Source: Escherichia coli (GTDB taxonomy: Bacteria; Pseudomonadota; Gammaproteobacteria; Enterobacterales; Enterobacteriaceae). Taken from it: a stretch of 64,000 nucleotides of DNA. The stretch is from the NCBI RefSeq assembly GCF_003334385.1, contig NZ_QOWN01000002.1; one strand, 5' to 3'. Under the pieces are notes generated by a model. It made no database searches, was not told the origin of the DNA, and saw only the letters and a list, made by a program, of their open reading frames with translations. Positions within the stretch are counted from its first letter, which is position 1; each line of letters opens with the position of its first letter. The translations under genes were made by a program, and so were the position numbers. This document shows positions 12,096 through 32,846 of this stretch, one piece after another.

Positions 12096-12665
12096 TTGTT
12101 TGTCATGATGACAAGGCAGGCATCAATGAAAGGCTTCCCAATTGCGCATATTTTTCACCCTTCAATCCCGCCAATGCACGCAGTGGTTAACAATCACAAT
12201 AGAAATATTGATTATTGGACGGTAAAAAGAAAGTTTGCAGAAATTGTCTCCACCAATGACGTTAATAAAATTTACAGTATAAGTAATGAACTGCGGAGAG
12301 TATTATCTGCAATAACTGCATTGAATTTCTATCATGGCGATGTTCCTTCTGTCATGATCCGAATCCAACCGGAAAATATGAGTCCATTCATTATAGATAT
12401 TTCTACAGGAGAACATGATGATTATATCATACAAACATTAGATGTAGGCACTTTTGCACCTTTTGGTGAACAATGTACTTGCTCAGCCGTCAATAAAAAA
12501 GAGCTGGAATGTATTAAGGAGACGATTTCTAAGTATTGTGCAAAATTCACCCGAAAAGAAGCCATCTTAACCCCCCTTGTGCACTTTAATAAAACCAGCA
12601 TTACTTCAGATTGTTGGCAAATTCTCTTTTTTTCACCCGATCATTTTAATAATGATTTTTATTGA
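12096..12665 (+). CDS. yhaB: Uncharacterized protein YhaB, 189-aa ORF
   Basis: Track ORF in an AT-rich segment; no recognisable domain. Position between tdcR and yhaC matches K-12 yhaB. Confidence 0.7.
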   Translation: MFVMMTRQASMKGFPIAHIFHPSIPPMHAVVNNHNRNIDYWTVKRKFAEIVSTNDVNKIYSISNELRRVLSAITALNFYHGDVPSVMIRIQPENMSPFIIDISTGEHDDYIIQTLDVGTFAPFGEQCTCSAVNKKELECIKETISKYCAKFTRKEAILTPLVHFNKTSITSDCWQILFFSPDHFNNDFY

Positions 12666-14117: not shown

Positions 14118-14487
14118 AAACCCGCCGGAACGGTTTATTACGTACATCAGGTAAAACTGACCGATAAGCCGCTTTCTTTTGGGTATAGTGTCGTGGACAG
14201 TCATTCATCTTTCTGCCCCTCCAAAAGTAAAAACCCGCCGAAGCGGGTTTTTACGTAAAACAGGTGAAACTGACCGATAAGCCGCTTTCTTTTGGGTATA
14301 GTGTCGTGGACAGTCATTCATCTTTCTGCCCCTCCAAAAGCAAAAACCCGCCGAAGCGGGTTTTTACGTAAACCAGGTGAAACTGACCGATAAGCCGCTT
14401 TCTTTTGGGTATAGCGTCGTGGACAGTCATTCATCTTTCTGCCCCTCCAAAAGCAAAAACCCGCCGAAGCGGGTTTTTACGTAAATC
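14118..14487. repeat. Three tandem 113-bp direct repeats in the rnpB 3' flank, each with a terminator-like hairpin
   Basis: The unit caggtgaaactgaccgataagccgctttcttttgggtatagtgtcgtggacagtcattcatctttctgcccctccaaaag-aaaaacccgccgaagcgggtttttacgtaaa recurs with a 113-bp period. Each copy shares about 45 nt with the 3' end of rnpB and carries the hairpin aaacccgc-cgaa-gcgggttt. A degenerate partial copy precedes them near 14118. Confidence 0.85.
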
Positions 14488-14864
<377 letters not shown>

Positions 14865-19553: not shown

Positions 19554-21125
19554 ATGGCCAACATCGAAATCAGACAAGAAACGCCAACTGCGTTTTATAT
19601 AAAAGTTCACGACACAGATAATGTGGCAATTATTGTTAATGATAATGGCCTGAAAGCAGGAACGCGTTTTCCGGATGGGCTGGAATTAATTGAACATATT
19701 CCCCAGGGGCATAAAGTCGCATTGCTGGACATTCCGGCTAATGGTGAAATTATTCGTTATGGCGAAGTGATTGGTTACGCCGTGCGTGCAATCCCACGCG
19801 GAAGCTGGATCGACGAATCAATGGTTGTACTACCGGAAGCGCCGCCGTTACACACGCTGCCACTGGCAACCAAAGTCCCGGAACCCTTACCGCCGCTGGA
19901 AGGATACACCTTTGAGGGCTATCGCAATGCCGATGGCAGCGTGGGCACCAAAAACCTGCTCGGTATCACCACCAGCGTCCACTGTGTGGCAGGCGTGGTG
20001 GACTATGTAGTAAAAATCATTGAACGCGATCTGCTACCGAAATACCCGAACGTCGATGGCGTGGTGGGGCTGAATCATTTGTACGGTTGTGGCGTGGCGA
20101 TTAACGCACCGGCGGCAGTTGTACCTATCCGTACCATTCACAATATTTCGCTGAATCCTAACTTTGGCGGCGAAGTAATGGTGATTGGCCTGGGTTGTGA
20201 AAAGTTGCAGCCTGAGCGCCTGCTGACTGGAACGGATGATGTGCAAGCTATTCCAGTAGAAAGCGCCAGCATTGTCAGTTTGCAGGATGAAAAGCATGTC
20301 GGTTTTCAGTCCATGGTCGAGGATATTTTGCAGATCGCCGAACGCCATCTACAAAAACTGAATCAACGGCAGCGAGAAACCTGCCCGGCTTCAGAACTGG
20401 TCGTTGGTATGCAGTGCGGTGGCAGCGATGCGTTTTCTGGTGTAACGGCAAACCCGGCGGTTGGCTATGCGTCTGATCTACTGGTGCGCTGCGGCGCAAC
20501 GGTGATGTTTTCAGAAGTAACGGAAGTGCGTGACGCGATCCATCTGCTGACACCACGCGCAGTGAACGAAGAGGTCGGCAAACGGCTGCTGGAGGAGATG
20601 GAGTGGTACGATAACTATCTCAATATGGGAAAAACCGACCGCAGCGCCAACCCTTCGCCGGGCAACAAGAAAGGCGGTCTGGCAAACGTGGTAGAGAAGG
20701 CACTCGGCTCCATTGCTAAATCGGGTAAAAGCGCAATTGTTGAAGTGCTGTCGCCCGGTCAACGCCCGACTAAACGCGGATTAATTTACGCCGCGACGCC
20801 AGCCAGCGATTTTGTCTGTGGCACGCAACAGGTGGCTTCGGGTATCACAGTGCAAGTGTTTACGACCGGTCGTGGTACGCCGTACGGCCTGATGGCGGTA
20901 CCCGTCATTAAAATGGCAACCCGCACCGAGCTGGCGAACCGCTGGTTTGATTTAATGGATATTAATGCGGGCACCATCGCTACCGGCGAAGAAACTATTG
21001 AAGAGGTGGGCTGGAAGTTGTTCCACTTTATTCTCGACGTCGCCAGCGGGAAGAAGAAAACCTTCTCGGATCAATGGGGGCTGCATAACCAGCTGGCGGT
21101 GTTTAACCCGGCACCGGTGACCTGA
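19554..21125 (+). CDS. garD: Galactarate dehydratase GarD, 523 aa
   Basis: Track ORF; divergent from garP across a ~370-bp AT-rich control region. Confidence 0.93.
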
Positions 21126-24488: not shown

Positions 24489-24962
24489 ATGCCAAATATT
24501 GTTTTAAGCCGGATTGATGAACGCTTGATTCACGGTCAGGTCGGCGTTCAATGGGTCGGATTTGCGGGGGCAAATCTGGTGCTGGTAGCCAACGATGAGG
24601 TTGCCGAAGATCCGGTACAACAAAACCTGATGGAAATGGTACTGGCAGAAGGGATCGCCGTACGTTTCTGGACGCTGCAAAAAGTTATCGACAACATTCA
24701 TCGCGCCGCCGATCGACAGAAAATCCTGCTGGTTTGTAAAACACCCGCCGATTTCCTGACGCTGGTGAAAGGTGGCGTTCCGGTGAATCGCATTAACGTT
24801 GGCAATATGCACTACGCCAATGGCAAACAACAAATCGCCAAAACGGTTTCTGTGGATGCGGGCGATATCGCAGCATTTAACGACCTGAAAACCGCTGGGG
24901 TGGAATGCTTCGTTCAGGGCGTCCCGACAGAGCCTGCTGTGGACCTCTTTAAATTACTTTGA
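24489..24962 (+). CDS. agaV: PTS EIIB, N-acetylgalactosamine-specific (AgaV), 157 aa
   Basis: Track ORF 24453..24962; start set at internal ATG after the RBS aagagga, giving MPNIVLSRIDERLIHGQ with the mannose-family EIIB phospho-His motif. Confidence 0.88.
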   Translation: MPNIVLSRIDERLIHGQVGVQWVGFAGANLVLVANDEVAEDPVQQNLMEMVLAEGIAVRFWTLQKVIDNIHRAADRQKILLVCKTPADFLTLVKGGVPVNRINVGNMHYANGKQQIAKTVSVDAGDIAAFNDLKTAGVECFVQGVPTEPAVDLFKLL

Positions 24963-26637: not shown

Positions 26638-27072
26638 ATGTTAAGTATTATTTTGACAGGGCATGGCGGGTTTGCCAGCGGCATGGAAAAAGCAATGAAG
26701 CAAATTCTCGGTGAGCAATCGCAGTTTATCGCCATCGATTTTCCGGAAACCTCAAGCACCGCGCTGCTTACATCGCAGCTTGAAGAGGCCATCGCCCAAC
26801 TGGATTGTGAAGACGGCATTGTTTTTCTGACGGATTTGCTGGGCGGCACGCCGTTTCGCGTAGCTTCAACGCTGGCGATGCAAAAACCGGGCTGTGAAGT
26901 GATCACCGGCACCAATTTGCAACTGCTACTGGAGATGGTGCTGGAGCGCGAAGGGTTAAGCGGTGAAGAATTCCGTGTACAGGCGCTGGAGTGTGGACAC
27001 CGAGGGCTGACCAGTCTGGTGGACGAGTTAGGCCGCTGCCATGAAGAATGTCCGGTCGAGGAAGGAATATGA
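26638..27072 (+). CDS. agaF: PTS EIIA, mannose family (AgaF), 144 aa
   Basis: Track ORF; EIIA-Man fold N-terminus MLSIILTGHGGFASG. Confidence 0.88.
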   Translation: MLSIILTGHGGFASGMEKAMKQILGEQSQFIAIDFPETSSTALLTSQLEEAIAQLDCEDGIVFLTDLLGGTPFRVASTLAMQKPGCEVITGTNLQLLLEMVLEREGLSGEEFRVQALECGHRGLTSLVDELGRCHEECPVEEGI

Positions 27073-30580: not shown

Positions 30581-30746
30581 TCATTAGTTTTTTATGATTT
30601 ATCCCAATGTACTTCCCGATTAATATCGGGGAGTGCCTTAATGGAAAAGGAGATAACTAAACCTTAATAAATACATCACTACAATATCGCAACAATAATA
30701 TATTTAAAAAAATTATATTATTCAACTTTATGGTGAGGATTACACA

Positions 30747-31223
30747 ATAACCAGTCCAAATATTCTCTTAACCCGTATTGATAACCGTCTGGTTCACGGT
30801 CAGGTTGGCGTGACCTGGACATCCACCATCGGTGCAAATCTGCTGGTAGTCGTGGATGATGTTGTCGCTAACGATGATATTCAACAGAAATTAATGGGTA
30901 TTACCGCGGAAACCTACGGCTTTGGCATTCGTTTCTTTACTATCGAAAAAACCATTAACGTCATCGGCAAAGCTGCACCACATCAGAAGATCTTCCTGAT
31001 TTGCCGTACGCCACAAACGGTACGTAAATTGGTAGAAGTTGGTATTGACCTGAAAGATGTCAACGTCGGCAATATGCATTTCTCGGAAGGGAAAAAGCAA
31101 ATCAGCAGTAAAGTTTATGTCGATGACCAGGATCTCACGGACTTACGTTTTATTAAACAACGTGGCGTGAATGTTTTCATTCAGGACGTCCCTGGCGATC
31201 AAAAAGAACAAATCCCTGACTAA
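30747..31223 (+). CDS. agaB: PTS EIIB, galactosamine-specific (AgaB), 158 codons if initiated at the expected position
   Basis: Track ORF 30810..31223 starts at a GTG. The reading frame continues upstream and encodes the EIIB phospho-His segment TSPNILLTRIDNRLVHGQ. The codon at the expected start, 7 nt after the SD ggtgagga, reads ATA; there is no in-frame ATG/GTG/TTG between the upstream stop (~30705) and 30810. Confidence 0.7.
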   Translation: MTSPNILLTRIDNRLVHGQVGVTWTSTIGANLLVVVDDVVANDDIQQKLMGITAETYGFGIRFFTIEKTINVIGKAAPHQKIFLICRTPQTVRKLVEVGIDLKDVNVGNMHFSEGKKQISSKVYVDDQDLTDLRFIKQRGVNVFIQDVPGDQKEQIPD

Positions 31224-31261: not shown

Positions 31262-32065
31262 ATGCATGAAATAACCCTACTTCAGGGATTATCCCTGGCG
31301 GCGTTAGTTTTTGTTCTGGGGATTGATTTTTGGCTGGAAGCCTTATTTTTATTCCGCCCGATAATCGTTTGTACCCTAACTGGCGCTATTCTCGGTGATA
31401 TTCAGACTGGCTTAATTACCGGTGGTCTGACAGAGTTGGCTTTCGCCGGATTAACCCCTGCAGGTGGTGTTCAGCCGCCCAACCCGATTATGGCGGGTCT
31501 GATGACCACCGTCATTGCATGGTCTACGGGCGTTGATGCCAAAACAGCAATTGGTCTTGGCCTGCCGTTTAGTTTGTTAATGCAGTACGTCATTCTGTTC
31601 TTCTATTCCGCTTTCTCATTATTTATGACCAAAGCCGATAAATGCGCGAAAGAGGCGGATACGGCAGCGTTTTCCCGGCTTAACTGGACAACGATGCTCA
31701 TCGTCGCTTCAGCGTATGCGGTGATTGCTTTCCTCTGTACTTACCTGGCACAGGGGGCGATGCAGGCGCTGGTGAAAGCGATGCCCGCCTGGCTGACCCA
31801 CGGCTTTGAAGTGGCTGGCGGTATTCTGCCTGCCGTTGGTTTTGGCTTGCTGCTGCGCGTAATGTTCAAAGCGCAATATATCCCTTACCTGATCGCCGGT
31901 TTCCTGTTTGTTTGCTACATCCAGGTCAGCAACCTGTTGCCGGTTGCCGTACTGGGCGCAGGCTTTGCGGTGTATGAGTTTTTCAATGCGAAATCCCGGC
32001 AGCAAGCGCAACCGCAGCCCGTTGCCAGTAAAAATGAAGAAGAGGACTACAGCAATGGGATCTGA
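31262..32065 (+). CDS. agaC: PTS EIIC, galactosamine-specific (AgaC), 267 aa
   Basis: Track ORF; mannose-family IIC. Confidence 0.92.
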   Translation: MHEITLLQGLSLAALVFVLGIDFWLEALFLFRPIIVCTLTGAILGDIQTGLITGGLTELAFAGLTPAGGVQPPNPIMAGLMTTVIAWSTGVDAKTAIGLGLPFSLLMQYVILFFYSAFSLFMTKADKCAKEADTAAFSRLNWTTMLIVASAYAVIAFLCTYLAQGAMQALVKAMPAWLTHGFEVAGGILPAVGFGLLLRVMFKAQYIPYLIAGFLFVCYIQVSNLLPVAVLGAGFAVYEFFNAKSRQQAQPQPVASKNEEEDYSNGI

Positions 32066-32846
32066 AATCAGTAAAAAAGATATCACCCGTCTGGGCTTTC
32101 GTTCGTCGCTGCTGCAAGCGAGCTTTAACTACGAAAGGATGCAGGCGGGCGGTTTTACCTGGGCGATGTTGCCGATCCTGAAAAAGATTTATAAGGACGA
32201 CAAACCGGGCTTAAGCGCGGCGATGAAAGATAACCTCGAATTTATTAATACCCACCCGAATCTGGTCGGATTCCTGATGGGGTTATTAATTTCGATGGAA
32301 GAAAAAGGAGAAAACCGCGACACCATTAAAGGCCTCAAAGTGGCACTGTTTGGCCCAATCGCCGGGATTGGCGATGCGATTTTCTGGTTTACTTTGTTGC
32401 CGATTATGGCGGGAATTTGCTCATCATTTGCCAGCCAGGGAAACCTGCTGGGGCCGATTCTATTTTTCGCCGTTTACCTGCTTATCTTTTTCCTGCGCGT
32501 CGGCTGGACCCACGTCGGTTATTCAGTCGGCGTGAAGGCGATCGATAAAGTGCGAGAGAACTCGCAGATGATTGCCCGTTCGGCAACCATCCTCGGGATC
32601 ACGGTAATCGGCGGGCTGATCGCTTCGTATGTGCATATTAACGTGGTGACATCGTTTGCCATCGACAATACCCACAGCGTTGCGCTGCAGCAGGATTTCT
32701 TCGATAAAGTCTTCCCGAACATTTTACCGATGGCCTACACCCTGCTGATGTATTACTTCCTGCGGGTGAAAAAAGCGCATCCGGTGCTGTTAATCGGCGT
32801 GACTTTTGTGCTCTCTATTGTTTGTTCCGCATTCGGCATTTTGTAA
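32055..32846 (+). CDS. agaD: PTS EIID, galactosamine-specific (AgaD), 263 aa
   Basis: Track ORF 31908..32846 is over-extended into agaC; start set at ATG giving MGSEISKKDITRLGFRSSLLQASFNYERMQ; overlaps the agaC stop by 11 nt. Confidence 0.9.
   Translation: MGSEISKKDITRLGFRSSLLQASFNYERMQAGGFTWAMLPILKKIYKDDKPGLSAAMKDNLEFINTHPNLVGFLMGLLISMEEKGENRDTIKGLKVALFGPIAGIGDAIFWFTLLPIMAGICSSFASQGNLLGPILFFAVYLLIFFLRVGWTHVGYSVGVKAIDKVRENSQMIARSATILGITVIGGLIASYVHINVVTSFAIDNTHSVALQQDFFDKVFPNILPMAYTLLMYYFLRVKKAHPVLLIGVTFVLSIVCSAFGIL

Follow-up and report, generated by a model that had tools for sequence, protein, structure and literature searches.

Galactosamine (Gam) uptake in Escherichia coli is encoded by agaBCD, and the lesions described in the surrounding cluster include the Gln8 amber codon in agaC that makes O157:H7 Gam-negative, the agaF Gly91Ser change of spinach-outbreak O157:H7, and the 2.3-kb agaW'-agaA' deletion through which K-12 is both Aga- and Gam-negative; lesions upstream of agaBCD have polar effects on these genes (Hu et al. 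2013, PMC3668189). All 64 codons have been measured as starts in E. coli with reporters, AUA, AUC, AUU and CUG initiating at 1–2% of AUG in one reporter system and at 0.02–3% in others, and the only confirmed non-canonical E. coli starts are those of infC and pcnB, both AUU (Hecht et al., bioRxiv 10.1101/063800).

We describe an agaB allele carried in a stretch of E. coli DNA of 64,000 nucleotides, the whole of which is referred to as the window. Compared with E. coli AgaB (NF007288, 3EYE), the window gene has the same locus, the same operon (agaS-kbaY-agaBCDI) and the same His motif, but it has ATA for the ATG start and Val for Gly98.

The agaB start region

The features of the gene and its upstream region are as follows.

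30705..30707, plus strand: in-frame upstream stop TAA, closing the agaB frame on its 5' side (codon listing)
30732..30739, plus strand: Shine-Dalgarno-like GGTGAGGA, identical in all references (sequence and reference comparison)
30747..30749, plus strand: ATA at the agaB start position, with G-to-A at 30749, the third base of the start codon; ATG in the references
30747..31223, plus strand: reading frame of agaB (PTS galactosamine EIIB), 158 codons and a stop, without interruption by internal stops
30795..30797, plus strand: CAC, His17, the conserved phospho-accepting His of the RL(V/I)HGQ motif, upstream of GTG 30810
30810..30812, plus strand: GTG at codon 22, the first canonical in-frame start, giving a 137-aa product without His17; used by Prodigal-type callers
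31038..31040, plus strand: GTT for Gly98Val, a G-to-T change at 31039 that affects the leading Gly of the conserved E-G-G motif; in the window's sub-lineage only

The local sequence runs ...ATGGTGAGGATTACACA ATA ACC AGT CCA AAT..., and after the TAA at 30705–30707 the frame translates as KNYIIQLYGEDYT-I-TSPNILLTRIDNRLVHGQVGVTWT..., continuing to the TAA at 31221–31223. The sequence-only reading had placed an ATA where the start of agaB is expected, and both its coordinates and its description are exact: bases 30747–30749 are ATA in frame with agaB, at the position where RefSeq starts the gene in four references. It had also stated that no canonical start precedes GTG 30810, and a listing of every in-frame codon from 30705 to 30812 agrees, GTG 30810 being the sole ATG, GTG or TTG and the point at which a mechanical ORF list begins agaB. 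With ATA at 30747, the allele has no canonical start that would permit normal expression of the full EIIB domain. The ATA does stand as a near-cognate codon at a functional distance from the Shine-Dalgarno (SD) sequence, 7 nt after GGTGAGGA with the spacer TTACACA; this spacing had been given correctly, but the description of the SD as strong does not stand, since by our reading it is moderate, with a GAGG/AGGA core of 4–5 bp.

A mini-ORF of six codons (ATG GTG AGG ATT ACA CAA TAA) lies out of frame at 30730–30750 and spans the SD. Its stop and the agaB start overlap, as A-TGA (ATGA) in wild-type DNA, and the mutation turns this stop into TAA; no SD is seen upstream of its ATG at 30730.

Rarity and inheritance of the ATA allele

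Four references were compared, K-12 MG1655, E. coli C, O157:H7 F7508 and 1162T7, the last a divergent strain, and each of them reads ATG at the counterpart of 30747. Between 30581 and 31261 (681 bases) the window and K-12 differ at two bases only, 30749 (G-to-A, ATG to ATA) and 31039 (G-to-T, GGT to GTT, Gly98Val). The frequency of both changes was assessed by 61-mer searches of 5,426 complete E. coli genomes, of which 5,272 were matched by the start-region probes and 5,231 by the probe for 31039, with these exact matches:

Wild-type ATG-ACC 61-mer: 1,004 of 5,272 complete genomes
Wild-type ATG-AGC 61-mer: 4,104 of 5,272
ATA-ACC 61-mer: 1 of 5,272 (strain SCU-104)
ATA-AGC 61-mer: 0 of 5,272
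61-mer with T at 31039: 0 of 5,231

The exact wild-type ATG context is thus present in 5,108 of the 5,272 genomes on the ACC and AGC backgrounds together, and 163 besides SCU-104 have some different change within the 61 bases; an independent ATA on the AGC allele background was not found among these genomes. The possibility that reference strains also carry the ATA is rejected by these counts and by the ATG in all four references, and the ATA is a substitution in an otherwise conserved start codon, not a chance pattern. The sequence-only reading had proposed either inefficient initiation at the ATA or a start-codon lesion of this strain, and had suggested alignment to agaB of K-12, E. coli C and O157, in which a shared ATA would have told against it. 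All of these have ATG, and with the ATA in a single complete genome both proposals are supported, as descriptions of one and the same event.

Sequencing or assembly error was considered and rejected, the ATA being repeated in SCU-104, in ENA and NCBI contigs and in identical Logan assemblies. Three independent public assemblies or read sets, namely Logan ERR1948963 (one contig, present in 5 samples), SRR7819145 and NCBI GCA_012504395.1, match the window at 100% identity over 8.7–20.5 kb and share the ATA, Val98 and the window's other "private" SNPs. An ATG on resequencing had been named as evidence against the lesion; independent assemblies and read sets reproduce the ATA.

Comparison with five close relatives identified four variants that the window has in common with SCU-104 alone (11449, 11630, 30749 and 44195) and six that are the window lineage's own (11785, 12934, 23213, 26014, 31039 and 35735). 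Because the four shared variants are absent from the four other close relatives, the ATA was inherited, and because it is present on at least three haplotypes (the window type, that of contig L012 and SCU-104) it has persisted for some time. Contig L012, representing 18 more places like it, and contig L016 have the ATA with Gly98. Exact-sequence look-ups in a large public protein collection found both possible products of the window's allele: with Val98, the 137-aa form called from the GTG occurs on 3 contigs and the 158-aa form on 4. With Gly98, the 137-aa form occurs on 229. Between agaA and agaS (window 28418), L012 and L016 carry one extra T that the window lacks, which marks a separate ATA haplotype.

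Five of the six changes of the window lineage are non-synonymous (tdcR C45F, yhaC V83A, kbaZ Q10E, agaE M91I and agaB G98V), the change in yraJ being the sole synonymous one; agaE M91I is likewise an ATG-to-ATA change, but of an internal Met codon. This preponderance fits a young clone that has so far seen little purifying selection, with numbers too small to say more. The arrival of a second change in agaB is only weakly suggestive. Considered as evidence of relaxed selection, private mutations are not significantly enriched in the gene, by our estimate of P ~0.11 for a second change there (from the 9 other of 10 lineage changes, the 40,061 bases covered by all relatives and a gene of 477 bp), nor in the aga genes, which hold 4 of the 10 lineage changes where about 3 are expected.

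Two other features of the window are noted. Between yhaC and rnpB, at ~14118–14510, BLAST self-offset matches reveal tandemly repeated units (period about 113 bp, identity about 96%). In LR-21-1, the closest complete genome, an IS3-family insertion splits yhaB (19721–20949 of the LR-21-1 locus); the window is without this insertion (~12389–12398) and its yhaB is intact.

The AgaB protein and the predicted effect of the lesion

Read from the ATA, the 158-aa frame scores 279.1 bits against NCBIfam NF007288, the galactosamine EIIB equivalog (cut-off 180), and 235 against TIGR00854 (cut-off 163.6); PF03830 is matched on the called product, and in alignment the frame shows near-identity to 3EYE, the solved structure of AgaB. 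In 3EYE, 8YRI, 3P3V and the mannose EIIB domain 1VSQ the conserved His lines up with His17, the residue phosphorylated in mannose-family EIIB proteins. His17 lines up also with the His of the paralogue AgaV, as had been noted by comparison of the two genes. Because codon 17 precedes GTG 30810, His17 is made only if translation starts at the ATA. The GTG product (137 aa) loses residues 1–21 and begins at profile position 19, and the earlier expectation that it would be without its phosphorylation site is borne out by alignment to the solved mannose-family EIIB structures.

That the ATA is an error after all, or that the GTG start gives a functional short protein, has in our judgement a negligible chance of being correct. 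Prodigal-type calls do report the 137-aa product, and by our reading a weak AGGT lies 5 nt upstream of GTG 30810; against this, the short protein lacks the active-site His and the first part of the profile, and the error is contradicted by the independent assemblies and read sets described above.

Gly98Val is a second lesion in agaB, beyond what the sequence-only reading had observed. Residue 98 is Gly in every homologue aligned (3EYE, 8YRI, 3P3V, 1VSQ and AgaV), in a motif E/K/A-G-G, and in the window the conserved Gly-Gly that follows a helix (LVEGG) is not retained, Val98 replacing its first Gly. Because this Gly is invariant in the four solved homologues and in AgaV, Val at residue 98 is probably harmful to AgaB.

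The annotations of the allele differ. RefSeq/PGAP reads the ATA as Met and reports an "intact" 158-aa product under the same WP protein accession as K-12, a call that reflects the start rules of genetic-code table 11 and homology, not expression evidence. Prodigal-type callers report a 137-aa protein from the GTG on the same DNA. The two representations concern the window gene and loci L018, L019, L020 and L005. Neither annotation signals the probable loss of agaB function.

The effect on translation can be considered in the light of the reporter measurements. The lineage-specific G-to-A at 30749 made the start near-cognate while keeping the SD, its spacing and the predicted mRNA fold; an altered mRNA structure as part of the effect was rejected, the predicted minimum free energy structure being identical and the accessibility of the SD and start nearly the same in the model. 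Ribosomes would still initiate at the ATA with fMet-tRNA, at perhaps 1–2% of the ATG rate (0.02–3% across constructs), AUA being strongly disfavoured in initiation, and no other start would give functional AgaB, since GTG 30810 removes His17, the phosphoryl acceptor from AgaF and donor to the sugar. Because AUA initiates at 1–2% of AUG and there is no alternative usable start, a large drop is expected, and by analogy with the reporters AgaB synthesis is most likely down 30-fold or more in the window lineage. Through polar effects, the weak agaB translation might reduce the expression of agaC and agaD as well. The window's sub-lineage then gained Gly98Val, which probably damages the little AgaB that is made.

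The other relevant components of the cluster are as follows.

24489..24962, plus strand: agaV, encoding EIIB-Aga, a paralogue with 47% identity to AgaB; intact, starting at a normal ATG
26638..27072, plus strand: agaF, the EIIA shared by Aga and Gam, intact
31262..32065, plus strand: agaC, EIIC-Gam, intact and unchanged relative to K-12 and four close relatives
32055..32846, plus strand: agaD, EIID-Gam, intact and unchanged relative to K-12 and four close relatives

The agaB allele therefore stands in an operon context with intact EIIC, EIID and EIIA genes (agaC, agaD and agaF); agaI is also intact, its sequence agreeing with that of K-12 and of four other close relatives. Because agaVWEF, agaA, agaS and kbaYZ are intact in the window, growth on N-acetylgalactosamine should be kept. 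From the sequence, a severe knock-down of AgaB with impaired galactosamine uptake and retained N-acetylgalactosamine use is likely, and this predicted effect fits the role of agaBCD in the literature. The best explanation, to which we assign a probability of about 0.75, is that the ATA start lesion leaves little or no functional EIIB-Gam, with poor or no growth on D-galactosamine. Several considerations weigh against it: with the operon induced, an EIIB level of 1–2% of normal might be enough for slow growth; agaC, agaD and agaI are unchanged, so there is no sign of wider decay of the Gam system; and the ATA has persisted on several haplotypes. The lesion may be recent, neutral or tolerated.

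In another reading the allele is a tolerated hypomorph, the ATA yielding enough AgaB on induction for near-normal galactosamine use and being either effectively neutral or a tuning of expression. Initiation at near-cognate codons is detectable (Hecht et al., bioRxiv 10.1101/063800), the agaB SD and spacing are intact, agaC, agaD and agaI are without decay, and the ATA persists on several haplotypes and many public contigs; yet AUA typically costs a factor of 30 to 100 or more in initiation (Hecht et al., bioRxiv 10.1101/063800), the ATG is otherwise almost invariant in complete genomes, and a change at the conserved Gly98 in the sub-lineage would be unexpected if AgaB function were under selection. 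We consider this reading unlikely. It is very improbable that AgaB loss is without phenotype through AgaV (EIIB-Aga) phosphorylating the sugar bound to AgaC/AgaD: AgaV has the same His motif as AgaB and shares the EIIA AgaF with it, and it is intact, but E. coli keeps two separate EIIB genes, and an identity of 47% leaves room for docking surfaces that differ. No report of cross-complementation between AgaV and AgaB was found in the literature retrieved.

Comparison with other aga/gam lesions and non-canonical starts

The ATA is one of several lesions of agaB in public assemblies. A 2-nt insertion after codon 7, an amber codon at Gln19, another insertion and a foreign junction near codon 5 were seen on contigs L013, L014, L015 and L017, respectively, strain PSS-16 has an IS1 insertion in agaB, and ATCC 8739 retains only 83 nt of the region. 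agaB has thus been hit more than once and by different kinds of change, none of them frequent, and some of the draft-genome cases could be assembly errors. That agaB is broken in several independent ways (ATA, insertions, the Gln19 amber, IS1 and near-absence), and that K-12 and O157:H7 carry other lesions of the cluster (Hu et al. 2013, PMC3668189), would be expected if loss of the galactosamine PTS were selected for as an adaptive inactivation, as opposed to neutral decay. We think this improbable, as 5,108 of 5,272 complete genomes keep the exact wild-type start region, and lesions that recur but stay rare are the pattern expected when a dispensable function is lost neutrally.

We return to the preferred reading, a start lesion with little or no functional EIIB-Gam. 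The lost start and G98V place the lesion in a gene needed for Gam uptake, and it resembles the lesions of K-12 and O157:H7 in being lineage-specific and in hitting one component of the Gam/Aga PTS in an otherwise intact cluster; K-12 carries its known cluster deletion, unlike the window. The predicted Aga-positive, Gam-negative phenotype of the window lineage would match that of O157:H7. The agaB lesion differs from the O157:H7 and K-12 lesions in that the gene affected is agaB, not agaC or agaF, and in that a start-codon change is leaky and not absolute. We therefore read the agaB ATA as a natural event of an ordinary kind, in which a dispensable sugar transporter is knocked down or lost, and not as a new biological mechanism; it adds to the known aga/gam lesions that differ between E. 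coli lineages and is of modest biological importance. Such lineage-specific lesions matter for phenotype prediction and metabolic models.

The agaB ATA is also reminiscent of the starts of infC and pcnB, being likewise a near-cognate AUN codon with normal SD spacing that RefSeq annotates as a start. It would join these two AUU cases as a natural AUA-initiated E. coli gene if it were a working start of very low level that is kept in the lineage; AgaB synthesis might then depend on IF3 levels, and the lineage might have set its galactosamine transporter deliberately low without giving it up. We regard this as doubtful, with long odds against it. The infC AUU is conserved and is used for IF3 autoregulation, and a genuine non-canonical start is expected to show such conservation; the agaB ATA does not, with 1 occurrence against 5,108 exact ATG contexts, and is a rare derived allele (1/5,272) of a conserved ATG. 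The AUU starts of infC and pcnB are confirmed by experiment, whereas initiation at the agaB ATA is a prediction.
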